From Candidatus Omnitrophota bacterium (GTDB lineage: Bacteria; Omnitrophota; Gorgyraeia; Gorgyraeales; Gorgyraeaceae): 58,357 nt of DNA. Location of the stretch: positions 1 through 58,357 of the forward strand of contig JAHIPS010000081.1 of assembly GCA_018902915.1 (NCBI GenBank), read 5' to 3'. Within the stretch, counting starts at the first letter, position 1, and every line of letters starts with the position of its first letter. The translations under genes and the position numbers were made by a program. Below the pieces are notes generated by a model. That model was given only the letters and a program-made list of their open reading frames with translations. It ran no database searches and was not told the DNA's origin. Positions 3,171 through 53,421 of this stretch are shown here, one piece after another.

Positions 3171-3809
3171 ATGAAACCAGCAGAAGAAAGAGTAATAAAG
3201 ATAGTAAGGATACTACGTAAGTCCTATCCAGGACACAAAACCGTGCTTTACTATAAAACACCTTTTCAGATCATGGTAGCGACTATACTTTCTGCCCAGT
3301 GCACGGATGAGAGGGTGAATAAGATCACGCCTGGTCTTTTCAAGAAATATAAGACTGTTAATGATTTTGCAAAGGCAAGGCAGTCTGTGTTGGAGAAGGA
3401 GATCCATTCAGCTGGTTTTTATAGAAATAAGGCAAAGAATATAATAGCAGCGTCTAAAAAGATAATAAAGGAATTTAAAGGAAAAGTGCCTGATAATATG
3501 GAGGGACTTATTTCTTTGGCAGGGGTGGCTCGTAAAACCGCAAATATAGTCCTATCAAGCGGGTTTAAAAAGGCAGAAGGCATAGCTGTTGATACGCATG
3601 TTAAAAGACTTTCAGGAAGATTGGCCTTGAGTAACGAAAGAGATCCTAATAAGATAGAGCAGGATCTTCTAAAGATCGTGCCTAAGAAGGACTGGCTCGA
3701 TCTTAACTATATGCTCGTGGACCATGGCAGGGCGATATGTAATGCAAGAAAGCCGCTGTGTGGCGAGTGCGTGGTAAGTAAACTGTGCCCGTCAGCAAAC
3801 AAGGTATGA
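3171..3809 (+). CDS. nth: endonuclease III
   Basis: HhH-GPD pattern (LISLAGVARKTANIVL, VDTHV) and a C-terminal CX6CX2CX5C Fe-S loop (CNARKPLCGECVVSKLC). Confidence 0.9.
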   Translation: MKPAEERVIKIVRILRKSYPGHKTVLYYKTPFQIMVATILSAQCTDERVNKITPGLFKKYKTVNDFAKARQSVLEKEIHSAGFYRNKAKNIIAASKKIIKEFKGKVPDNMEGLISLAGVARKTANIVLSSGFKKAEGIAVDTHVKRLSGRLALSNERDPNKIEQDLLKIVPKKDWLDLNYMLVDHGRAICNARKPLCGECVVSKLCPSANKV

Positions 3810-3818
3810 TTTAACCGT

Positions 3819-3873
3819 CCCAGAGTGGGTAGATGCGTAGGCTACCCACTCTGGGTAGCCTACGCATCTACCC
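3819..3873. repeat. interleaved inverted repeats (A-B-A'-B' arrangement)
   Basis: 3819-3832 pairs with 3842-3855 (14 bp). 3827-3844 pairs with 3856-3873 (18 bp). The two perfect stems share nucleotides. Confidence 0.8.
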
Positions 3874-3882
3874 ATAGGTTAT

Positions 3883-4764
3883 ATGATAAAACAAGCAATG
3901 CTTTACGACAAACTGGACAATGGCAGGGTGAAGTGTAATCTCTGTGCGCATTGCTGCAAAATTAGCCCTGATAGCTCTGGGATCTGCGGCGTAAGAAAAA
4001 ATAAAGATGGTGAATTGTATACACTTGTCTATGGTGATGTTATTGCTTCACATGTGGATCCAATTGAGAAAAAACCCCTCTACCATTTCCTACCTGGCTC
4101 GTATTCTTATTCAATAGCGACAATAGGGTGTAATTTCAAATGCAGTTTTTGTCAGAACTGGGAGATATCCCAGGCATCAAAAAGGCAAGACGCCCTTTCA
4201 GGGTATGAACTCATGCCTGAAGAAGTCGTGCGAGAGGCAAAGAAGAATAACTGTAAGAGCATTTCGTATACTTACACTGAACCAACAATATTTTTTGAGT
4301 ATGCATATGATACTGCAAGACTTGCTAAGAAAGAGGGGCTTTATAATGTCTTTGTAACAAATGGTTACATGACAAAAGAAACGCTTAATGTTATAAAGCC
4401 GTATCTTGATGCTGCAAATGTCGATCTTAAATCTTTTCGAGAAGATTTCTATAGAGAGATGTGTGGCGCTCATCTAAAGCCTGTCCTTGATACTATAGAA
4501 CTAATGAAAAAACTTGGCATATGGGTAGAGATCACAACCCTGGTTGTAACTGGCAAAAATGATTCAGATAATGAATTTAAAGATATTGCAGAATTTATTG
4601 CAAACCTCGACCCTGGTATCCCCTGGCATATATCTCGCTTCCACCCTGATTTTAAATATCTGGAGGGAAAACCAACGCCCATTGATACTCTAAAAAGGGC
4701 GAGAGATGTAGGAAAGAAAGCAGGTCTTAGAAATATACATTTAGGTAATGTAATAGAAGTCTAA
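3883..4764 (+). CDS. AmmeMemoRadiSam-system-type radical SAM enzyme (PflA-like activase family)
   Basis: Radical SAM CX3CX2C in IGCNFKCSFCQNWEIS, plus an N-terminal Cys-rich segment (CNLCAHCC...GICG). Confidence 0.75.
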   Translation: MIKQAMLYDKLDNGRVKCNLCAHCCKISPDSSGICGVRKNKDGELYTLVYGDVIASHVDPIEKKPLYHFLPGSYSYSIATIGCNFKCSFCQNWEISQASKRQDALSGYELMPEEVVREAKKNNCKSISYTYTEPTIFFEYAYDTARLAKKEGLYNVFVTNGYMTKETLNVIKPYLDAANVDLKSFREDFYREMCGAHLKPVLDTIELMKKLGIWVEITTLVVTGKNDSDNEFKDIAEFIANLDPGIPWHISRFHPDFKYLEGKPTPIDTLKRARDVGKKAGLRNIHLGNVIEV

Positions 4765-19224: not shown

Positions 19225-19506
19225 ATGTCAGTTAAGGTAAGGATACCAACGCCTTTACAGAAACACACGAATAATCAAGGAGAGGTCAGTGCGGATGCCA
19301 CGAATATAAGGAATCTCATCGAGACCCTTGAGAAGAATTTTCCAGGCATTAAAGAGAGGATCTGCGATGAGAGTGGCAATATCCGCAGATTTATCAATAT
19401 CTATGTCAATGAAGAGGATGTGCGGTTTTTGCAAAAAGACGAAACCCCTCTTAAGGATGGCGATGAGGTCTCAATAATTCCAGCAATAGCAGGAGGCAGT
19501 CAATGA
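19225..19506 (+). CDS. CysO/MoaD-like sulfur-carrier protein with C-terminal GG followed by Ser-Gln
   Basis: 93 aa. [11 protein letters not shown]...[14 protein letters not shown]...[15 protein letters not shown] closely parallels what I recall of mycobacterial CysO. Confidence 0.85.
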
Positions 19507-20333
19507 AACTTACAGATGCGCAGATAGAGCGCTATTCAAGACAATTGATATTGCCTAACATAGGCGGCAAGGGCCAGGAAAAGATTTTAAACGCAAAGGT
19601 CCTGGTGATCGGCGCAGGAGGACTTGGTTCGCCTGCGTCGTTATATCTTGCGTCAGCTGGCGTGGGAAAGATCGGCATTGTGGATTCTGACAAGGTCGAG
19701 GTAAACAATCTCCAGAGACAGATAGTGCATTCCACAAGTACTGTTGGGAAGCCAAAGGTAGATTCTGCAAAAGAAAGACTCAATGCAATAAATCCCGAGA
19801 TAGAGATAGTGCCTTTCAATCTACGGCTAACCTCTGCCAATATCATGGACATCATAAAGGACTATGATATTGTCGTGGATGGCTCTGATAATTTTCCGAC
19901 GAGGTTTCTTGTAAATGACGCATGTGTTCTGGCTAAGAAGCCTCTTTCGCACGGCGGCATATTCAGGTTTGACGGCCAGGCAATTACAATCTTGCCAGGT
20001 GAAAGTGCATGCTACAGGTGTCTTTTTCCTGAGCCGCCTCCGCCAGGCCTTGTTCCGAGCTGTCAGGAGGCAGGCATATTAGGTGTAGTTGCTGGGATAA
20101 TAGGGACTATCCAGGCAAACGAGGTATTGAAATATATACTGAAAACAGGGGATCTTTTGACAGGAAGATTATTGGTGTTTAACGCGCTGGATTCGAGCTT
20201 CAGGCAGGTCAAGGTCCCTAAGGATCCGAATTGTCCGGTATGCGGCAAGAATCCGACTGTTACAGAATTGATAGATTATGAACAATTCTGTCAAGTGAAA
20301 CCCAGGTCCGCCGCAGGCGGATCTGATGGCTGA
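19503..20333 (+). CDS. MoeB/ThiF/HesA-family adenylyltransferase (E1-like), no rhodanese domain
   Basis: [12 protein letters not shown] and a CxxC...CPVC Zn site. The C-terminal tail [11 protein letters not shown] is encoded by a hairpin repeat. Confidence 0.85.
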
Positions 20334-27356: not shown

Positions 27357-27775
27357 GTGAGTGGGAACCGAAGATAGTAGGCTTTCTCTGTAATTGGTGT
27401 AGCTATGCTGGAGCGGATTTAGCCGGGACCTCCAGGCTTGAATATCCGCCTAATATAAGGATTATCAGGCTCCCCTGTTCAGGCAGGGTCAACCCTTTAT
27501 TTATCTTAAAGTGTCTTTCCAATGGCGCTGACGGGGTATTGATATCCGGCTGTCATATTGGTGACTGTCACTATTCAGAGGGAAATTTTTACGCGCGCAG
27601 GAGATTTGCAGTCTTAAAGAAACTTTTGGAATATCTGGGCATAGACCCGAGGAGATTCCAGATGTCATGGGTATCTGCTTCTGAAGGCGACAAATGGGCA
27701 AGACTCGTGACAGAATTAGTAGAAGAGATCAAACAGGCCGGGCCAAACAAGGATTTCGTTAGGAAAAATGATTGA
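27353..27775 (+). CDS. mvhD: MvhD/FlxD-type [2Fe-2S] subunit
   Basis: FLCNWCSYAGADLAG, RLPCSGRV and SGCHIGDCHY. Confidence 0.85.
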   Translation: MSEWEPKIVGFLCNWCSYAGADLAGTSRLEYPPNIRIIRLPCSGRVNPLFILKCLSNGADGVLISGCHIGDCHYSEGNFYARRRFAVLKKLLEYLGIDPRRFQMSWVSASEGDKWARLVTELVEEIKQAGPNKDFVRKND

Positions 27776-28631
27776 CCAGATAAAAACTAAGGCAAAAGAG
27801 TTATTAAAGACGAAAAAAGTAGACATAGTTATTGGTTATAAGAAGGCCAGTGACAGGATAGGCGCTATACCTGCTTTTATTGATAAGGAAGGGGATATTG
27901 ATAAATTAATATGGGATGGGTATTGCGTCTATAATCTTAGCAATTATCTAAAAGACTTTCCAGGCAAAAAAATAGGAATAGTGACAAAGGGTTGCGACGC
28001 AAAGTCAATGACAGTGTTATTGCAGGAAAATCAATTGAAGAGGGAGGACATATTTATAATCGGCATCGAGTGTTCAGGCATAGTTGATGAAAAGAGGAAA
28101 GGCGGGGATATAGCCTATGATGAAAGATGCAAGGGATGTAAGCCCGCGACGCCGCCCATTTACGATGTTTTGATAAAAGAGGAAGAAAAGAAACAGGCCC
28201 CAAGATTGGAACAGGATCCTTATGAGAGCGTGCGTAAATTAGAGACAAAATCTATCGAAGAAAAGTTTAAGTTCTGGCAGGATGAATTTTCAAGATGTAT
28301 CCGTTGTTATGCCTGTAGACAGATCTGTCCCTTATGTTATTGCCCGAGATGCGTGGCTGAGCAGACGCAGCCTGCCTGGTTTTCAAAGGCGGTTTCTGTA
28401 GAGGGCAATTTCAGCTGGAACGTGAACCGCGCGATGCATCTGGCTGGAAGATGTATTGACTGCGGAGAATGCGAAAGGGCCTGCCCTGTGGGGATCCCCT
28501 TAAGAGATATAAATAAAAAGATAGAAAAGGATGTAAAAGAGCTTTTTAGTTATGAGGCAGGAGTAGACACTGAACAGAAACCTTTATTCAGCTCGTTTGA
28601 CAAAAACGACCCAGAGGATTTTATCAAGTAA
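27768..28631 (+). CDS. Fe-S subunit (FlxC-like)
   Basis: C-terminal CIRCYACRQICPLCYCPRC and CIDCGECERACP. Its position follows mvhD. Confidence 0.6.
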   Translation: MIDQIKTKAKELLKTKKVDIVIGYKKASDRIGAIPAFIDKEGDIDKLIWDGYCVYNLSNYLKDFPGKKIGIVTKGCDAKSMTVLLQENQLKREDIFIIGIECSGIVDEKRKGGDIAYDERCKGCKPATPPIYDVLIKEEEKKQAPRLEQDPYESVRKLETKSIEEKFKFWQDEFSRCIRCYACRQICPLCYCPRCVAEQTQPAWFSKAVSVEGNFSWNVNRAMHLAGRCIDCGECERACPVGIPLRDINKKIEKDVKELFSYEAGVDTEQKPLFSSFDKNDPEDFIK

Positions 28632-28694
28632 GTCCGCTTACAGCGGACTTACTTGATCCCCCCTGTTTAGTTTTGTGAAGCAAAACTAGGGGGG
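28623..28694. repeat. two hairpins: a perfect 15-bp stem spanning the stop codon (28623-28657) and C6...G6 element copy E (28658-28694)
   Basis: ATCAAGTAAGTCCGC-ttaca-GCGGACTTACTTGAT, followed by CCCCCCTGTTTAGTTTTG-tgaag-CAAAACTAGGGGGG. Confidence 0.85.
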
Positions 28695-28710: not shown

Positions 28711-29682
28711 ATGCAAAGACTTATTACTAAACAAGATTTGGTTAACAAGTTAACAGAGCTCTTGAAAGACTTCGAGGTCGTAGGGCCAAAAGAGCTCTCT
28801 AATAAAGGTATATTCTATCAGGTCATAGAGGATGCAAAGGAGTTATATCTGGGGCAAGATTTTGCAATAGAGCCGATAAAGAAATTCTTTTTAGAGCCGT
28901 CTTCCTGGATCCTAAGACACGCTAAGGACGATGTAAGCTTAGAAAGTTTTCCCCAGTCAGATAAAAAGAGAATAGTTATTGGAGCCCGGCCGTGCGAGGC
29001 AAAAGGGTTGGCATTATTGGATAAGCTGTTCGATTCCGAATACAAGGACGATTTTTATATAAATAACCGCAAGAGGACTATTGTTGTGGGCCTTGCCTGC
29101 GCTAAACCTGACATGAGCTGTTTTTGCACATCAATGCAGGGGTCGCCAGCAGAAACCTCTGGGATGGATGCGTTGATCTTTGAATCAGGCGATGGATTTA
29201 TCATAGAGCTGGTTACTGATAAGGCAAAGCATATTCTCGGCTCTATAGGAGAGGATATTAAAGAAGATCAGAAATTAAATAAAGACAAAATGAAAGCCCT
29301 GGTCAAGAAAGTGATAAAGACACCTGAAAGCCTGGACAAGGTCTTTGAGAGCGATTATTGGGACGAGGTCTCCAGGCCGTGTATAAGTTGCGGCGTGTGC
29401 ACATTTTTATGCCCGACCTGTCATTGCTTTGATCTGGTGGATGAAGAGAAAAAGAGGATGAGGTGTTATGACGGATGCAGCTTTCCGGATTTTACGCTCG
29501 AGGCGTCTGGCGTGAATCCCAGGCCTACAAAAAAGGAACGCTACAGGCAGAGGGTATTTCACAAATTCGATTATTTTAAGAAAAATTTTGGGGAAAATCT
29601 CTGTGTAGGCTGTGGGAGATGCATCAGGCATTGTCCGGTGAAAATCGATATAGCAGATATTGTGGATAAAGCGCCTATTTAA
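28711..29682 (+). CDS. Fe-S subunit (FlxB / AsrA / sulfhydrogenase-beta-like)
   Basis: CISCGVCTFLCPTCHC and CVGCGRCIRHCP. Paired with the following FAD/NAD subunit. Confidence 0.65.
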   Translation: MQRLITKQDLVNKLTELLKDFEVVGPKELSNKGIFYQVIEDAKELYLGQDFAIEPIKKFFLEPSSWILRHAKDDVSLESFPQSDKKRIVIGARPCEAKGLALLDKLFDSEYKDDFYINNRKRTIVVGLACAKPDMSCFCTSMQGSPAETSGMDALIFESGDGFIIELVTDKAKHILGSIGEDIKEDQKLNKDKMKALVKKVIKTPESLDKVFESDYWDEVSRPCISCGVCTFLCPTCHCFDLVDEEKKRMRCYDGCSFPDFTLEASGVNPRPTKKERYRQRVFHKFDYFKKNFGENLCVGCGRCIRHCPVKIDIADIVDKAPI

Positions 29683-43771: not shown

Positions 43772-44215
43772 ATGGGGAATTTTTTAAGCGCTATTTTATC
43801 ATCCTATGAGGGAAAAGAGGATGAATTAATACCTATTTTACAGCAGGTTCAGGAGAAACTTGGTTATCTCCCTGAAGAGGCCATGCTTGAGATAGCCAAA
43901 TTTACTGGTGTATCGGAAAGTAAGATATATGGCGTGGCGTCGTTTTATGCGCAGTTTCGCTTTACACCGGTAGGCAAGAACAAAGTCACGGTATGTCGTG
44001 GGACTGCCTGCTATGTTCGTGGTGCGCCACGGATCCTGGAAGAAGTAGAAAGACGTTTAGGTATCCGGGATGGAGAGACTACAAAAGACCTGGAATACAC
44101 CATCGATACTGTGGCGTGTATTGGTTGCTGCGCACTATCTCCTTGCATGATGATCAATAAAGAGGTACATATCAAGTTAACCCCACCGAAGATAGACAAG
44201 ATCTTCTCCAAATAA
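43772..44215 (+). CDS. NuoE-like [2Fe-2S] subunit
   Basis: VCRGTAC...CIGCCALSP thioredoxin-like ferredoxin motif. Confidence 0.85.
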   Translation: MGNFLSAILSSYEGKEDELIPILQQVQEKLGYLPEEAMLEIAKFTGVSESKIYGVASFYAQFRFTPVGKNKVTVCRGTACYVRGAPRILEEVERRLGIRDGETTKDLEYTIDTVACIGCCALSPCMMINKEVHIKLTPPKIDKIFSK

Positions 44216-44226
44216 GGTAATAGCTT

Positions 44227-46215
44227 ATGTTGTTTAAGGAACTACAAGAGCGCGCAAAAAAAGAGTGGGAAGGGATAAAACAAAGTGAACCCCTGGTGAT
44301 CTCAGTGGGTGCTGCTACTTGCGGTAGGTCTGCGGGCGCGCTATCTGTGCTTCAAGCCTTCAAAGATGAATTAAATACTCGTCGTATTCGTGCCCGCATC
44401 GTTGAGGTAGGATGTATCGGCCTATGTTACAGAGAGCCCATTGTTACTATTACTAAATCCGGACATCCTGGCATATGTTATGGCAATATAACGCCTCCAA
44501 AGGTTATAGAACTCATCGAAGGTCATATTATCAATGACAAGGTCTTAGAAGATTATGCGCTGGGTACTATCGGAGAGGGCAGCATTGACAAAGTCCCTAG
44601 CCTCTTTCAGATCCCAGTGCTTAAGCCGCAAGTGAGACGTATCATGAATAATTTCGGGTTCATTGACCCTACAAATATAAATCATTATATTGCTAATGGC
44701 GGCTATAGTGGCCTGGCAAAGGCCCAAAAGATGAAACCAGGACAAATAATTAATGAACTAAAGAAATCCGGCTTGAGAGGCAGGGGTGGCGCTGGTTTTC
44801 CTACCTGGCAAAAATGGCAGTTTTGCTTAAATGCAAAAGGTAGACATAGATATATTATCTGCAATGCTGACGAGGGCGACCCAGGCGCTTTTATGAACAG
44901 GTCTCTTCTTGAAAGCGACCCGCATTCTGTATTGGAGGGACTACTTATAGCTGGTTATGCTATTGGAGCAGAAAAAGGCTATATCTACTGTCGCGCAGAA
45001 TATCCCTTAGCATTGGATAGACTAAAAATAGCTCTTAAAGAGATGGAAAAAAACATGTTTTCAGGAAACAATTGTGATTCCGGGTTTAATTTTCATATAG
45101 AGATAAAGCAGGGCGCAGGCGCTTTTGTTTGCGGCGAGGAGACCGCTCTTATTGCCTCTATCGAAGGCAAACGTGGCATGCCTAACCCCCGGCCACCTTT
45201 TCCTGCAATATCCGGGCTATGGGGAGAGCCTACTATTATCAATAACGTGGAGACCCTGGCGTCTGTAGCTTCTATATTTAAGAATAATGCTGATTGGTTT
45301 GGCCAATATGGTACGCAAAAAAGCAAGGGTACTAAGACTTTTGCGTTAGCAGGCAAGATAAGGCGCACTGGTCTTATTGAAGTGCCGTTAGGTGTTACGC
45401 TAAGAGAGGTAATATACGAGATAGGCGGCGGGATTCAGAACGATAAAAAATTCAAGGCAGTTCAGACAGGCGGCCCCTCAGGCGGATGCTTACCCGCTTC
45501 TCTTTTAGATGAACCTATTGATTACGAGTCACTCGCTCAAGCCGGCTCAATTATGGGTTCCGGCGGCATGGTGGTAATGGACGAAGATACCTGCATGGTG
45601 GATATTGCCCGCTATTTTCTTGATTTTACGCAAAAAGAATCCTGCGGAAAATGTGTTCCCTGCAGGCTCGGCACAAAACAGATGCTTGATATTCTTAATG
45701 ATATAACTCAAGGAAAAAGTAGATCTGAAGATATTGATCTTCTTCTCGAATTAGCTGAAGGGATAAAGGCAGGTTCACTCTGTGGTCTCGGCCAGACAGC
45801 GCCAAATACAGTACTTACTACTATTCGTTATTTTCGGGATGAGTACGAGGCGCATATAAAACATAGGAAATGTCCGGCAGGTGTTTGTAAAGCACTGATC
45901 CGCTATTCTATTGACGAAGCTAAGTGTACTGGATGCGGTGTTTGTAAAAAAGAGTGTCCAGGGGACGCCATCTCGCGGTATAGGAAAGTATATCCCCCCT
46001 TGTTTCCTTCCCCGCAGATTTGCTGGTGCAAATCTAATCGCGGGGACAGGTCGGAAACAAAACAGGGGGGACGGCGAAAATCGCTTAAAAATTATCGCCG
46101 CAAGGCGATTTTCTTGGGAGAAAAGAAAAAACCTCATAAGATAGATCAGGCAACCTGTATTAAATGCGGGGTCTGTAAAGAGGTCTGCAGATTTGAGGCT
46201 GTGAAGATAGAATAA
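44227..46215 (+). CDS. NuoF-like NAD(H)/FMN subunit with C-terminal 2x[4Fe-4S] domain, carrying a 141-nt in-frame repeat insertion
   Basis: GLRGRGGAGFPT, NADEGDPGAF, ESCGKCVPCRLG, CTGCGVCKKECP and CIKCGVCKEVC. Confidence 0.85.
   Translation: MLFKELQERAKKEWEGIKQSEPLVISVGAATCGRSAGALSVLQAFKDELNTRRIRARIVEVGCIGLCYREPIVTITKSGHPGICYGNITPPKVIELIEGHIINDKVLEDYALGTIGEGSIDKVPSLFQIPVLKPQVRRIMNNFGFIDPTNINHYIANGGYSGLAKAQKMKPGQIINELKKSGLRGRGGAGFPTWQKWQFCLNAKGRHRYIICNADEGDPGAFMNRSLLESDPHSVLEGLLIAGYAIGAEKGYIYCRAEYPLALDRLKIALKEMEKNMFSGNNCDSGFNFHIEIKQGAGAFVCGEETALIASIEGKRGMPNPRPPFPAISGLWGEPTIINNVETLASVASIFKNNADWFGQYGTQKSKGTKTFALAGKIRRTGLIEVPLGVTLREVIYEIGGGIQNDKKFKAVQTGGPSGGCLPASLLDEPIDYESLAQAGSIMGSGGMVVMDEDTCMVDIARYFLDFTQKESCGKCVPCRLGTKQMLDILNDITQGKSRSEDIDLLLELAEGIKAGSLCGLGQTAPNTVLTTIRYFRDEYEAHIKHRKCPAGVCKALIRYSIDEAKCTGCGVCKKECPGDAISRYRKVYPPLFPSPQICWCKSNRGDRSETKQGGRRKSLKNYRRKAIFLGEKKKPHKIDQATCIKCGVCKEVCRFEAVKIE
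45976..46116. repeat. C6...G6 modular element copy C, inserted in frame in the NuoF-like CDS
   Basis: Left flank ATAGGAAAGTATAT (45980-45993), C6 at 45994-45999, inner hairpin CCCCGCAGATTTGC-tggt-GCAAATCTaatcGCGGGG, G6 at 46065-46070, and right module ACGGCGAAAATCGC...GCGATTTTCTTG (46071-46116). Confidence 0.85.
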
Positions 46216-46219
46216 AATA

Positions 46220-46245
46220 GTAGGCCAGGTTTAAACCTGGCCTAC
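46220..46245. repeat. perfect 26-nt palindrome GTAGGCCAGGTTTAAACCTGGCCTAC
   Basis: Read directly. It lies between the NuoF-like stop and the fdhA start. Confidence 0.85.
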
Positions 46246-46249
46246 GGTG

Positions 46250-48964
46250 ATGATTATGATAAAGATAACCATTGATAATATACAAGTAAAAGCTAAAGCA
46301 GGGACGACAATATTAGAAACAGCGCTTGAAAATGATATTTACATCCCGCATCTTTGCTATTACCCTGATCTGAAACCAGTTGGCGCGTGCCGATTGTGTA
46401 TGGTAGAGATCCCTGGAAGAGGGTTAACGATTTCATGCAAGACCTTGGTAGAAAAAGGAATGGTTGTAAGGACAGAAAGCCCCCAGACCAGTAAGGTGCG
46501 GAGAACTGCTGTAGAGCTGCTTATTGTAAATCACCATGCGGATTGTCTTTCCTCCACCAAAGATACTCAGTGTAAATTAAAGGAGATAGCTACTTATGTT
46601 GGCATTGAGGAAGAGCGGTTAAAGCGATTGAGGGCCACGACTAAAACTACTCCTATTGACAGATCCAATCCTTTTTTTGACCGCGAACCTGATAGGTGCG
46701 TACTTTGTGGTATTTGCGTAAGAACCTGTGAAGAGATACAAGGCGCGAGTGCTATAGATTTTGCGTTTAGAAGCTATGACACTACTATTAGTACTTTTGG
46801 AAACAAACCTATCCTGGAATCCAGATGCGAGTCCTGTGGCGAGTGCGTAGTGAGATGTCCTGTAGGCGCATTAAGGCCTAAGGATTACCAAAAGCCTTCC
46901 CGTGAGGTAAAGAGCGTGTGTACCTATTGCGGCGTTGGCTGCGGGATCTACCTGGGCGTCAGGGATAACTCTATTGTTAGTGTACGGGGCAATACTGATA
47001 GCCCTGCAAATGAAGGCAGGCTTTGCGTCAAGGGGCGATTTGGCTATAATTTTGTTAATCACCCTGACCGGTTGACTACGCCCCTTATCAAGAAAAATGG
47101 CAAATTTGTTGAAGCTACATGGACAGAGGCGCTGGAACTTATTGCAAAAAAATTCTCTCTTTATAAAAAGGAGCAGTTTGCTGCTATTGCTTCAGCCAGG
47201 TGCACTAACGAAGAAAACTATCTTGTTCAAAAATTTACCAGGGCGGTAATGGGAACAAATAATGTTGACCACTGCGCGCGGCTTTGCCACGCGCCTACTG
47301 TTGCAGGCCTGGCTCAATCCTTAGGTAGCGGCGCGATGACCAATACCATCAGCGAGATCGGCCTTACCGCATGTATCTTAGCCATAGGCACCAATACCAC
47401 ATCCGCCCACCCTGTAATCGGGCTGCAGGTAAGAAAAGCAGCTAAGCACTCTGCAAAGCTTATCGTGGCCAATCCTAAAGAGATCGACCTTTGTCGCTTC
47501 GCTGATGTATTCATACGACACCGGCCCGGTACTGATATAGCCCTCTTGATGGGTATGATGCGAGTTATTCTCGATGAAGGGCTATATGACTTACCCTTTA
47601 TTGAAAAACGTACCGAGGGTTTCGAGGCCTTTAAGAAGACGCTTTCTAATTTTGACATGGATTTTGTAGAGAAGACAACAGGCGTAGACCGAAAGACGAT
47701 TATTAAAGCAGCCAGGATCTATGCTACCTCTAAACCCAGCACTATTCTATATGCTATGGGTATCTGCCAGCATTCTCATGGCACTGATAATGTACTGGCT
47801 ATCAGTAATCTATCGCTCATCACGGGGAACATCGGCAAGCCCTCATCAGGGGTCAACCCGTTACGGGGGCAGAACAATGTTCAGGGCGCCTGTGATATGG
47901 GATCTTTGCCTAATGTCTATCCCGGTTACCAGAAAGTGGATGACCCTGAGGTAAAAAAGAAATTTGAATCAGCCTGGGGTGTTCCTTTAGATCCATCGCG
48001 CGGGTTGACTCATTTTGAGATATCTGATGCCGCGTATGACAAGAAAATAAAAGCCCTTTATCTTGTCGGTGAAAATCCGATCTTAAGCGAAGCAAATGCC
48101 AGTCATGTCGAAGACGCTATAAAAAGATTGGAATTTTTTGTGGTCCAGGATATATTCCTTACAGAAACCGCTGAATTGGCTGATGTAGTCTTGCCTGCAG
48201 CAAGCTTTGCTGAGAAGGACGGGACTTTCACGAACAGCGAGCGACGCGTTCAGAGGATACATAAGGCAATAGAGCCTGTTGGAAATGCAAAGCCTGACTG
48301 GTGGATCACATGCCAGATCGGTAAAAAACTGGGAGGTAAAGGATTTGATTTTTCAGATCCTGGAGAGATCATGGATGAGATCGCTTCTTTAGTCCCGAAT
48401 TATAAAGGCATATCCTATGATCGGCTGGAAAAAGGGGGACTCCAGTGGCCCTGTCTTGATTATAAACATAAAGGGACACAGATCCTTCACACCGAACGCT
48501 TCGCTACAAAAAGCGGCAAGGCTAAATTTATATCACTTGAATATAGGCCATCACAAGAAATCCCTGATAGCGAGTATCCGCTCGTCCTCACTACTGAGAG
48601 CAGTCTTTACCACTATACCTCAGGCGCTATGACGCGAAGAGTGGATGGCCTTAATATATTAAGGAAGCAGGAACTGGTAGAGATCAACCCGGAAGATGCG
48701 AATAGGCTTGGGATCAGTGATGGCCAGACAGTGCGTATAACTTCCCGGCGGGGCGAGGTGCAGGCTAAAGCAAAGGTAACAGATGTTCCGTTGCCAGGCG
48801 TGATCTCTATGAGCATTCATTTTGCCGAAACAAAGACCAATCTAGTTACCAATGCTGCTTTGGATCCTATATCAAAGACACCTGAGACAAAGGTATGCGC
48901 GGTGAAAGTCTGCCCTGTTAAAAGCTTTAACCACAGAGAACACAGAGGAAAAGATATAGTTTAA
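46250..48964 (+). CDS. fdhA: formate dehydrogenase alpha subunit (NuoG-like N-terminus plus Mo/W-bisPGD), cysteine type
   Basis: 2Fe-2S CYYPDL...CRLC...SC, CVLCGICVRTC, CESCGECVVRCP, CTYCGVGC and active site HCARLCHAPT (Cys at the Sec position). The start could be GTG 46247, ATG 46250 or ATG 46256. Confidence 0.85.
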   Translation: MIMIKITIDNIQVKAKAGTTILETALENDIYIPHLCYYPDLKPVGACRLCMVEIPGRGLTISCKTLVEKGMVVRTESPQTSKVRRTAVELLIVNHHADCLSSTKDTQCKLKEIATYVGIEEERLKRLRATTKTTPIDRSNPFFDREPDRCVLCGICVRTCEEIQGASAIDFAFRSYDTTISTFGNKPILESRCESCGECVVRCPVGALRPKDYQKPSREVKSVCTYCGVGCGIYLGVRDNSIVSVRGNTDSPANEGRLCVKGRFGYNFVNHPDRLTTPLIKKNGKFVEATWTEALELIAKKFSLYKKEQFAAIASARCTNEENYLVQKFTRAVMGTNNVDHCARLCHAPTVAGLAQSLGSGAMTNTISEIGLTACILAIGTNTTSAHPVIGLQVRKAAKHSAKLIVANPKEIDLCRFADVFIRHRPGTDIALLMGMMRVILDEGLYDLPFIEKRTEGFEAFKKTLSNFDMDFVEKTTGVDRKTIIKAARIYATSKPSTILYAMGICQHSHGTDNVLAISNLSLITGNIGKPSSGVNPLRGQNNVQGACDMGSLPNVYPGYQKVDDPEVKKKFESAWGVPLDPSRGLTHFEISDAAYDKKIKALYLVGENPILSEANASHVEDAIKRLEFFVVQDIFLTETAELADVVLPAASFAEKDGTFTNSERRVQRIHKAIEPVGNAKPDWWITCQIGKKLGGKGFDFSDPGEIMDEIASLVPNYKGISYDRLEKGGLQWPCLDYKHKGTQILHTERFATKSGKAKFISLEYRPSQEIPDSEYPLVLTTESSLYHYTSGAMTRRVDGLNILRKQELVEINPEDANRLGISDGQTVRITSRRGEVQAKAKVTDVPLPGVISMSIHFAETKTNLVTNAALDPISKTPETKVCAVKVCPVKSFNHREHRGKDIV

Positions 48965-48968
48965 TATA

Positions 48969-49072
48969 GTAGGAAAGTATATCCCCCTAGATTTACTCCT
49001 TATAGTCGTAAATCTAAGCAGGGGGGACTGCGAAAATTGCAGAAAGTTATTGCCGAGGGCAATTTTCTTGTG
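48969..49072. repeat. C6...G6 modular element copy D
   Basis: Left flank GTAGGAAAGTATAT, then CCCCCTAGATTTAC-loop-GTAAATCTAagcaGGGGGG, and right module ACTGCGAAAATTGC...GGCAATTTTCTTG. Confidence 0.85.
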
Positions 49073-52520: not shown

Positions 52521-52788
52521 ATAGGAAATTATATGCCCCCCTGTTTTGTTTCGCTTCACCCCTAGAAATTGCAAAGCAATTTCAGGGACTTTAGTCCTGG
52601 GAATTCTTCGAATTCCTCAGGGCTCAACAAAACAAAGCAGGCCTGTCCCCCCTGCTTTGTTTTTGACCTGTCCCCGCGATTAGATTTGCGCCAGCAAATC
52701 TGCGGGGAAAAAACAAGGGGGGAGGGGACTGCGAAAAATCTCTTTGAGTCACCGAGCTCGCTGAAAGGCGGGCGAGATTTTTCTTGAG
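52521..52788. repeat. composite C6...G6 modular element (copies B1 and B2 plus right module) in a 430-bp gene-free interval
   Basis: Left flank ATAGGAAATTATATG. B1 has C6 at 52536-52541 and inner hairpins at 52560-52587 and 52596-52621. B2 has C6 at 52647-52652 and G6 at 52717-52722. The right module is ACTGCGAAAAATCTC...GAGATTTTTCTTGAG, ending at 52788. Confidence 0.85.
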
Positions 52789-52833
52789 TTTGTTGTTTTT
52801 AGGAGTATAATACAGAAAAAGAAAGGGGGATGT

Positions 52834-53283
52834 ATGTGGAAAAGGTTAATTGTTTTACTGCTCGTGGTTTCTTTTGGTTTGATGGCGAGCTATGTTTATG
52901 CAGGAGGGTGTGAAAAAGGAAAAAGCGACAAGCATAATATGGAGGACAAGGTATTTCACAAGGCCATGATGCTGATTAAAAATCAGGAAGAATTAGGTCT
53001 TACAGACGAACAAATAAAGAAGGTAAAGGATCTGAAGATTGCTACTAAGAAGGACGTGATAAAGAAAAAGGCTGATATTGAGATACTTGGTCTGGATATA
53101 AAGGCAGCCTTGTGGGATGATGTAGTAGATTTAAACGCACTAAATGCATTGATTGACACGAAGTATGAGCTTAAAAAAGAAAAGACAAAGTCTTTGGTAG
53201 CTGCATATGTGGAGCTCAAAGGCGTTTTGACAGAAGAACAAAAGACAAAACTCAAAGATCTTTGCAAAAAAGATAAAAAGTAA
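52834..53283 (+). CDS. periplasmic CpxP/Spy/ZraP-like (LTxxQ) protein
   Basis: Signal peptide, LGLTDEQIKKVKDL and LTEEQKTKLKDL, otherwise helical and Lys/Glu-rich. Confidence 0.7.
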   Translation: MWKRLIVLLLVVSFGLMASYVYAGGCEKGKSDKHNMEDKVFHKAMMLIKNQEELGLTDEQIKKVKDLKIATKKDVIKKKADIEILGLDIKAALWDDVVDLNALNALIDTKYELKKEKTKSLVAAYVELKGVLTEEQKTKLKDLCKKDKK

Positions 53284-53289
53284 AACTTA

Positions 53290-53325
53290 GTAACAGAGGA
53301 AGGTTTAAAAACCTTCCTCTGTTAC
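53290..53325 (+). terminator. 17-bp-stem hairpin after the CpxP-like gene
   Basis: GTAACAGAGGAAGGTTT-aa-AAACCTTCCTCTGTTAC. No clear T-tract follows. Confidence 0.5.
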
Positions 53326-53421
53326 TGTAAATAATCCTGCCTGACTTAACTATTCTGATCTATCTGAAAATCTAAAATTTTTTCTATATTCTTATCGACA
53401 GTTTCTTGACGCCGGTATATA

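Follow-up and report, generated by a model that had tools for sequence, protein, structure and literature searches.

Rickettsia palindromic elements (RPEs; Ogata et al. 2000, summarised in PMC10969869) are palindromic repeats of about 100-150 bp that lie between genes and also in frame within unrelated housekeeping genes, to which they add a recurring peptide. For three of the ten RPE families, almost half of the copies lie inside genes (PMC10969869). Here we describe a repeat family of comparable behaviour from a 58,357-nt stretch of a Candidatus Omnitrophota bacterium (assembly GCA_018902915.1, contig JAHIPS010000081.1, positions 1-58357, hereafter the window), where a 141-nt copy is inserted in frame in the gene of a NuoF/HydB-like flavoprotein. 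The family is previously undescribed and resembles transposable elements of the miniature inverted-repeat type (MITEs) and repetitive extragenic palindromes (REPs); literature searches with its motif strings gave only chance matches to primers and nothing relevant on repeat elements of Omnitrophota. Like RPEs, it is palindromic, occurs in frame in unrelated genes, possibly at fold-compatible sites, and leaves a recurring peptide. However, its hosts belong to another phylum, its modular make-up is obvious, including nested as well as flipped hairpins and a 3' module that resembles a terminator, and only about four of the roughly 30 copies observed are intragenic. The original prediction had been reminded of RPEs, and this comparison holds as an analogy of behaviour, with the same family in frame in three more genes. 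Such behaviour, i.e. selfish palindromic DNA persisting in essential protein genes by staying in frame, would now extend to free-living or episymbiotic uncultivated Omnitrophota and supports a general route to new protein surface loops.

Classical MITEs with intragenic ORF-carrying copies, such as ERIC, Correia and others (PMC10969869, PMC3184786), are likewise small, transposase-free, multi-copy and strongly folded, and they occur in transcribed intergenic regions and occasionally as in-frame fusions to open reading frames (ORFs). In contrast, the Omnitrophota repeat displays no target duplication, and its putative terminal inverted repeats are imperfect and only 8-9 bp long (TAGGAAAG / CTTTTCTTG). 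REP, BIME and REPIN-RAYT systems (TnpA-REP; PMC2817692, PMC3116915, PMC3733652, PMC8266576) share with it palindromic units that mostly lie just after stop codons, mosaic arrays, alternating orientations and the lack of target duplication, and a single-strand mechanism of the HUH type is plausible for both. On the other hand, its units are longer (33-110 nt compared with 20-40 nt in REPs), some copies are intragenic, and no RAYT turned up, although whole genomes of the hosts were not scanned. The GTAG/CGTC tag of REPs is not shared either, as most copies have ATAGG in the arm, and GTAGG is confined to one intergenic copy of the window (copy B, see below). Pneumococcal BOX, RUP and SPRITE repeats (Croucher et al. 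2011, cited in PMC10969869) have a similar modular A-B(n)-C-like build, nested insertions and a module resembling rho-independent terminators, but their hosts and sequences are unrelated and they are not known for repeatedly inserting in frame into conserved enzymes. Lastly, the IS200/IS605 family and its palindrome-associated derivatives (PMC6006769, PMC3479197) have no target duplication, hairpins near both ends, a strand or orientation bias, and insertion beside a short sequence resembling the element's other end, traits that our repeat may share; here, however, the target tetranucleotide is not next to a fixed left end, no TnpA turned up, and the mechanism would have to be deduced from such traits. 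By analogy, the Omnitrophota repeat seems to behave most like RPEs and intragenic ORF-carrying MITEs such as ERIC (PMC10969869), while its build resembles mosaic REP/BIME and pneumococcal BOX/SPRITE repeats (PMC2817692, PMC3733652, PMC10969869). We file it among the small palindromic mobile repeats able to live in frame inside genes.

In-frame insertion in the NuoF-like gene and in other genes

The host gene and its insert are located as follows:
44227..46215, + strand: gene of a NuoF/HydB-like flavoprotein (662 aa), ORF intact, with a C-terminal 2x[4Fe-4S] ferredoxin domain
45976..46116, + strand: inserted repeat copy (winA), 141 nt or 47 codons, residues 584-630, missing from orthologues

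The 662-aa product contains the Pfam domains Complex1_51K, SLBB, NADH_4Fe-4S and Fer4, and its best PDB match is 9bov_B (E=7.5e-226). A look-up of this protein on public contigs gave no record. At the DNA level winA consists of CGGTATAGGAAAGTATAT-CCCCCC...GGGGGG-ACGGCGAAAATCGC...GGCGATTTTCTTG, which in the host frame yields the stop-free peptide RYRKVYPPLFPSPQICWCKSNRGDRSETKQGGRRKSLKNYRRKAIFL, flanked by ...CTGCGVCKKECPGDAIS (...CPGDAIS) upstream and GEKKKPHKIDQATCIKCGVC downstream. Sequence and ORF translation agree on the insert as originally predicted (141 nt, in frame, stop-free), and its identity as a full copy of an otherwise intergenic repeat is borne out by the arm, core and right module at other loci of the window. 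Homologues had been expected to read ...AISGEKKKPH... across the site, and this very string is present (...AISGEKKKPHKIDQATCIKCG...) in P0002, the closest orthologue (616 aa; 88% identity outside the insert). The clean indel of 47 aa was confirmed with PDB chains and with database homologues below 700 aa. For chains 9bov_B, 9n5u_B and 7t2r_B, the alignment runs to residue 583-586 and picks up again at 629-630, their own residues being consecutive, and 97 of the 98 homologues are empty across the 47 insert columns. The exception, P0094, has an unrelated insertion of 10 aa at the same turn, and no unrelated orthologue with a homologous 47-aa segment was found. As proposed, the site is the linker between the two cluster motifs (CxxCxxCxxxC(P)) of the C-terminal 2x[4Fe-4S] domain. 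The cysteines C567/570/573/577 and C644/647/650/654 are invariant in the alignment, and the protein retains every residue that is invariant among 82 homologues.

Empty orthologous sites are found in two relatives. The locus of P0002 (L001) is syntenic with the window (MoeA, MobA-like, NuoE, NuoF, FdhA, MoaA...) and has GCTATCTCA joined directly to GGAGAAAAG, with ATCTCA before the junction, and in the second relative (L053) GCTATATCA is followed by GGGAAAAAG, with ATATCA before the junction. The filled site of the window reads GCCATCTCG, the 141 nt of winA, and GGAGAAAAG. Neither of these two loci contains a repeat module of any kind, and all three composite copies of the window (winA, B and C) are absent from L001. 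The target-site duplication that is a criterion for MITEs was visible neither in the filled and empty sites nor in the flanks of about 24 copies.

When the insert was shuffled with dinucleotides preserved, the used frame was open in 14% of the shuffles, so that being in frame and stop-free is not very improbable by itself; three of the six frames of winA are open, which 2.7% of the shuffles matched. The same outcome recurs in other conserved genes. An exhaustive HMMER search of 1.8 billion representative proteins with the 47-aa peptide retrieved a YbeY endoribonuclease (P0121) whose insert is 74% identical, at a site where PDB 1oz9_A has 5 residues compared with 53 in P0121. The ybeY insert is a complete element at the DNA level, and L051 and L052, which are independent assemblies, both encode the protein. 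In a class II aldolase-SCP2 protein (P0123, locus L033), the element is read in the same frame and the product has 366 aa compared with about 333 aa in 119/119 homologues, which read ...FAKERPNK/FEQELK... at the insertion point. In a NfnB/GltD-like gene (L013), it lies in frame within a linker and in opposite orientation. The three forward insertions (NuoF-like, YbeY, aldolase-SCP2) share the frame RKVYPPLF...KQGGRRKS...IFL, and 14 of 22 copies keep this frame, as RKVYPPLF...KQGG(R/L)RKS...IFL, free of stops. Each of the four gene-internal copies is a multiple of three in length and stop-free, and no gene-breaking copy was seen among about 27 copies. A word-indexed search with the 47-aa peptide returned nothing, and a second HMMER match (P0122) was discarded as an unrelated tandem-repeat protein with 11 matched stretches at 26% identity. 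For annotation this means that the family gives rise to insertions of 33-48 aa, to longer N-termini and to changes of start or stop codons, all of which automated pipelines will propagate into protein databases.

AlphaFold2 modelled the host protein from the 82-sequence alignment with a mean predicted local distance difference test (pLDDT) of 84 and a predicted template modelling score (pTM) of 0.84, with mostly >90 pLDDT outside the insert. Both cluster motifs persist in the model, as do the strands 582-584 and 637-639 and the ferredoxin fold, and the insert (residues 587-631) has a pLDDT of about 30 and no secondary structure. The suggestion that the segment forms a surface loop is in line with the preserved fold, the unstructured insert and the insertion of P0094 at the same turn, but this support is weak, as a low pLDDT is expected of an orphan segment. 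Judged from sequence and model, the insert is most likely translated as an extra disordered loop of 47 residues, which is very basic and contains Cys-Trp-Cys. The insertion can serve as a natural experiment on the amount of additional sequence that HydB/NuoF-type subunits might tolerate in their ferredoxin domain.

Modular anatomy and spread of the repeat family

Within winA, the modules of the repeat are arranged as follows:
45979..45993, + strand: left arm TATAGGAAAGTATAT, conserved in all aligned copies
45994..46070, + strand: long hairpin P2, closed by C6/G6, stem TTGTTTCC/GGAAACAA, 3' bulge AAAC (z=-6.1)
46010..46052, + strand: nested inner module A, CCCCGC-AGATTTGC-loop-GCAAATCT-AATC-GCGGGG-ACAGGTC, covarying among copies
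46073..46085, + strand: small hairpin P3, GGCG-AAAAT-CGCT, outer pair GU, UA, AU or GC among copies (pair 156-168)
46094..46116, + strand: terminator-like hairpin P4, ATCGCC-GCAA-GGCGAT, with compensatory pairs (helix 8), then the right end TTTTCTTG

Further units of the family in the window are:
48969..49070, + strand: intergenic copy B, 102 nt, lying after the FdhA-like stop codon and ahead of the gene that follows
52521..52786, + strand: intergenic copy C, 266 nt, with tandem hairpin cores (two), missing from the spacer of L001
20340..20448, + strand: stand-alone armless C6...G6 hairpin, beginning 6 nt past the stop codon of ORF 19503-20333
28658..28694, + strand: stand-alone C6...G6 hairpin of minimal size, 37 nt, flanked by ORFs 27768-28631 and 28711-29682

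The window holds three composite copies and two bare hairpins, i.e. five units in 58 kb. The left flank, C6...G6 core and right module that winA had been said to share with the intergenic copies are genuine and not due to chance. Matches to the left arm ATAGGAAAGTATAT lie at 45980, 48969 and 52521, with 5 in the window at up to 2 mismatches where 0.98 are expected, and the right module GGGGGGACNGCGAAAAT matches at 46065, 49021 and 52722 (3 compared with 0.02 expected). The core at 45995-46072 is 88% complementary to 52645-52722 over 78 nt, the second core of copy C being the reverse complement of the winA core. The existence and starts of the two intergenic copies stood as originally predicted, but their ends had to be moved from 49072 and 52788 to 49070 and 52786, the last G of CTTG. 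In copy B, this G is the first base of the GTG start codon of the next gene, and at the counterpart of this site in L001 the genes overlap (ATGA) and are element-free. The 52 nt before copy B and the spacers around copy C were considered as extra modules and rejected, their sequences being unique. Directly upstream of copy B, the C-terminus of the FdhA-like protein is about 17 codons longer than in L001 (...KSFNHREHRGKDIV*, 48915-48968), and these 52 nt have no match among the loci compared. The terminal TTG of copy C begins a -35-like TTGAGT, with TATAAT 16 nt downstream and before ORF 52834-53283 (52784-52811), possibly a hybrid promoter to judge from these two motifs. A sigma-70 promoter formed by TTGAYAG and TATAT in or upstream of the arm was rejected, the spacing being just 11 nt.

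The general plan consists of the arm TAGGAAAGTATA, the long C6...G6 hairpin able to hold nested modules, P3, P4 and the end TTTTCTTG. The minimal unit of about 91 nt (L002, L031) reads TATAGGAAAGTATAT, CCCCC-TTGTTTTC-TTCG-GAAAACAA-AACA-GGGGG, ACNGCG-AAAAT-CGCN, a spacer and ATCGCY-loop-RGCGAT-TTTTCTTG. It lacks module A, which is present in winA, L007, L010, L015, L019, L024, L026, L043 and L051. Another module (B, CCCTAGAAATTGC...) is found at window 20340, in copy C and in L049, and L007 and L019 have a small palindrome (CCCTTACGGGCACAGG) within the arm, which L033 carries reversed in its 3' loop. The long hairpin P2 also occurs alone (both bare hairpins of the window, L027 at 6858, L028 at 540) and, in the L018 subfamily and the second core of copy C, flipped with respect to the arms, and at L007 7681-7757 it is flanked by an arm and an inverted, non-identical arm copy. 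Within the 8-kb flanks covered, orphan arms run into other hairpin modules and not into transposase genes. The same left arm (TAGGAAAtTATA / TAGGAAGGTTTAT) also precedes another hairpin type (...CCCCGTTAGAGA...TCTCTAACGGGG...) at L007 ~7133 and L026 ~3427, and on the basis of these matches the arm seems common to several module types.

Copies range from 91 to 266 nt without a transposase gene inside and fold with z of -3 to -6 (winA: -62 kcal/mol, z=-6.1). RNAalifold on the raw MAFFT alignment recovered the C/G-run helix only, with the variable hairpin interiors misaligned, and was replaced by pair counting on an explicit four-helix structure, which comprises the closing helix P1 between arm and end, P2 together with its nested module, P3 and P4. 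Across 19 main-family copies, 94.5% of the cells are paired, compared with 46-60% when partners are slid, nine pairs have changed on both sides, and none of 500 shuffles matches the observed values. Compensatory changes were found in P2 (helices 2-3) and module A (helices 4-6, e.g. CTCCAC...GTGGAG in L026), whereas the arm/right-end pairing (helix 1) spans 8 bp with three G.U-type mismatches and no covariation. Outside this closing helix, G.U and A.C are balanced (17 and 14), so that the palindromes behave symmetrically at the DNA level and a reading as RNA only is unsupported.

The closest relatives of winA are an intergenic copy (L043, 94% identical) and the copy inside ybeY (L051, 88%). Scanning one genome per species with the right-module pattern, of which the left arm was not part, gave 32 stretches, about 10 of which look like chance. 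The full architecture is present in at least six Omnitrophota metagenome-assembled genomes (MAGs), namely CG1_02_40_15, MEGAHIT-group-1.510, bin81, WOR_2 RIFCSPLOWO2_12_FULL_46_30 (eight contigs with the right module), bin.352 and CG02_land, and also in one Ratteibacteria MAG and one MAG labelled Planctomycetia. Complete Omnitrophota genomes with the repeat exist as well, CP070655.1 being an example. A metagenome scan with the left arm gave 17 matches, five of them true copies and the remainder chance, and a scan of viral contigs gave zero matches. Rfam 15 had no match at gathering score across the whole window, and at E<=10 the two element regions gave sub-threshold generic hairpins only (miRNA precursors and one CRISPR repeat, 15 bits), which were rejected.

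Insertion, persistence and competing explanations

We consider it probable that winA is a small non-autonomous palindromic repeat whose insertion hit a tolerant turn and has lasted since it leaves the gene open. On this account, a modular, hairpin-rich repeat (left arm, invertible long hairpin accepting nested modules, two small hairpins, end TTTTCTTG) has spread through Omnitrophota and a few other uncultivated lineages, and one copy entered the C-terminal ferredoxin domain at the surface turn that links its two [4Fe-4S] motifs. This domain belongs to the NuoF/HydB-like subunit of a complex of the NuoE/NuoF/formate-dehydrogenase type. The insertion itself, the family, the empty sites in orthologues and the in-frame recurrence in further genes are observed, whereas translation and tolerance of the loop and the way the element moves are inferred. 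The insertion might have survived on three grounds, which together would keep the gene open: its net length is a multiple of three, the family keeps a frame free of stops (RKVYPPLF...KQGGRRKSL...AIFL), and the turn is tolerant. Several points weigh against this account. The step from the empty sites to winA requires one extra change (TCA to TCG, or the loss of 1 nt), the left boundary is blurred, with 3-5 nt between an upstream CTTG and TATAGG that vary among copies, and the left junction in L033 is an AGG microhomology with 9 nt of host sequence replaced, unlike clean transposition. No transposase, autonomous partner or related full-length insertion sequence turned up, although no systematic search for one was made. 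The low pLDDT of the insert is weak evidence for disorder, being expected for any segment without homologues, and the two added cysteines (C-W-C) beside the Fe-S ligands could be harmful. Further, transcription, translation and enzyme activity of the insert-bearing gene are predictions from a metagenome-derived source.

The positions of the intergenic copies might point to a function of their own. Genes are mostly co-oriented with the element (17/22 upstream, 17/21 downstream), and in many copies no more than 12 nt separate the upstream stop codon from the start of the element, and 11-16 nt its end from the start codon that follows. Upstream of thiL, a copy is found in three assemblies (L010 6698-6830, L044 3633-3766 and L047 1088-1221), where TAG of the arm is the stop codon of the upstream gene and the terminal TTG is likely the thiL start codon; since these copies have two versions of the right module, the insertion appears stable in populations and still diverging. 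The repeat might accordingly be a functional RNA or DNA signal, i.e. an intercistronic terminator or attenuator, an mRNA-stabilising hairpin or a protein-binding site recruited at operon junctions, with the NuoF-like copy as a by-product or a regulator of the downstream fdhA. Besides the orientation and spacing of the copies, this idea draws on the conserved multi-helix structure with compensatory changes, on the terminator scan, which flagged P4 and a T-tract in all three composite copies of the window, on the coincidence of the arm TAG with a stop codon in L010 and of the right-end TTG or G with the start codons of thiL (L010, L044 and L047) and of the gene after fdhA, and on three invariant G.U pairs in P1, present on the + strand only. 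However, G.U and A.C show no strand bias outside P1, the hairpin is found either way round with respect to the arms, L013 carries the entire element reversed, presence and absence are polymorphic among close relatives, and Rfam gave zero matches. Moreover, purifying selection in compact genomes could also explain the position pattern. We regard such a signal as rather unlikely, though worth keeping in mind, and it would be compatible with a mobile origin, not exclusive of the insertion favoured above.

The remaining explanations concern the gene itself. That it is a recently inactivated pseudogene, with an insertion in frame and stop-free by chance and a non-functional protein, would fit the frequency with which shuffled inserts leave the used frame open, the 141-nt length and the Cys-Trp-Cys with many basic residues beside the Fe-S ligands. 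Yet the remaining ORF is intact, 88% identical to P0002 and complete in its invariant residues, the operon partners are intact, and the family lies in frame in three other conserved genes with no frame-breaking insertion among about 27 copies, which makes decay improbable. The extreme structure and bounds exactly at codon borders might suggest that the segment is never translated, the mature protein reading AIS-GEKKKPH after an intron-like removal or a programmed ribosomal bypass. This seems very improbable: there is no match to a ribozyme or intron family even at E<=10, neither a take-off/landing codon pair nor matching splice-like boundaries were seen, and a removed element needs neither a length in multiples of three nor an open frame, both of which all four gene-internal copies have. 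Repeats are classic sites of misassembly, and in a metagenome-assembled contig a copy might have been misplaced into the gene. Such a chimera, already considered in the original prediction, is contradicted by both flanks, which continue the same gene at the same codon, by the identical 662-aa product on 2 contigs, by the analogous ybeY insertion in two independent assemblies and by the thiL-adjacent copy in three, so that we give it hardly any weight.

How the repeat moves would have to be read from its ends and flanks. For 7 of the 26 arm positions parsed (roughly 6 of 24 genuine copies), the tetranucleotide CTTG lies within 12 nt upstream of the arm, compared with a background of 3.6%; its context is usually T-rich like the element's own end, and the enrichment stems partly from tandem or degenerate copies. 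We tentatively lean towards mobilisation in trans by an enzyme recognising single-strand hairpins, of the HUH, IS200-IS605 or RAYT type, because there is no target duplication, hairpins are near both ends, the copies are co-oriented with genes and they often lie just 3' of a T-rich CTTG. This is possible rather than probable, and given the variable left boundary and the microhomology junction of L033, routes by recombination or template switching are also to be reckoned with. The well-defined modular hairpins, with their compensatory changes, flip-flop orientation and nested modules, provide a concrete substrate for finding a mobilising enzyme. A bolder and improbable extension is that the repeat is more than selfish DNA, namely a portable operon-junction cassette, mobilised at T-rich CTTG sites by a hairpin-specific single-strand enzyme (HUH-type) and carrying a stop (arm TAG), a folded terminator or attenuator RNA and a start (end TTG), whose open frame would supply reusable basic surface loops to redox and RNA-processing enzymes of Omnitrophota.

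Operon context and minor observations

The NuoF-like gene is flanked by two genes of related function:
43772..44215, + strand: NuoE-like 2Fe-2S subunit of the same complex (Pfam 2Fe-2S_thioredx)
46247..48964, + strand: formate-dehydrogenase-like molybdopterin catalytic subunit with a NuoG-like N-terminus (Pfam Molybdopterin, Molydop_binding, Fer2_4, NADH-G_4Fe-4S_3)

Molybdenum-cofactor genes are also among the neighbours according to Pfam. All non-overlapping long ORFs (>=130 aa) of the window are on the + strand, as are the three composite repeat copies, and the eight listed minus-strand ORFs lie within or overlap longer + strand ORFs. Many close homologues of the NuoF-like protein (P0003, P0016-P0019 and others) are fusions of about 1050 aa, in which a GltD/NfnB-like FAD oxidoreductase replaces the C-terminal ferredoxin domain.

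A perfect 26-nt palindrome (GTAGGCCAGGTTTAAACCTGGCCTAC, window 46220-46245), whose GTAG...CTAC ends resemble a REP tag, fills the 31 nt that separate the NuoF-like stop codon from the FdhA-like start codon. In L001 and L053 the two genes overlap by 4 nt, and the palindrome is single-copy in the window and all compared loci. From this comparison, it looks like a second small insertion in the same operon. Elsewhere in the window, two fully complementary 23-nt arms, 3 nt apart (TGGGTAGATGCGTAGGCTACCCA / TGGGTAGCCTACGCATCTACCCA), lie at 3826-3874 between ORFs 3171-3809 and 3883-4764, and a terminator-like palindrome with a 17-bp stem is located at 53289-53326 on the minus strand.

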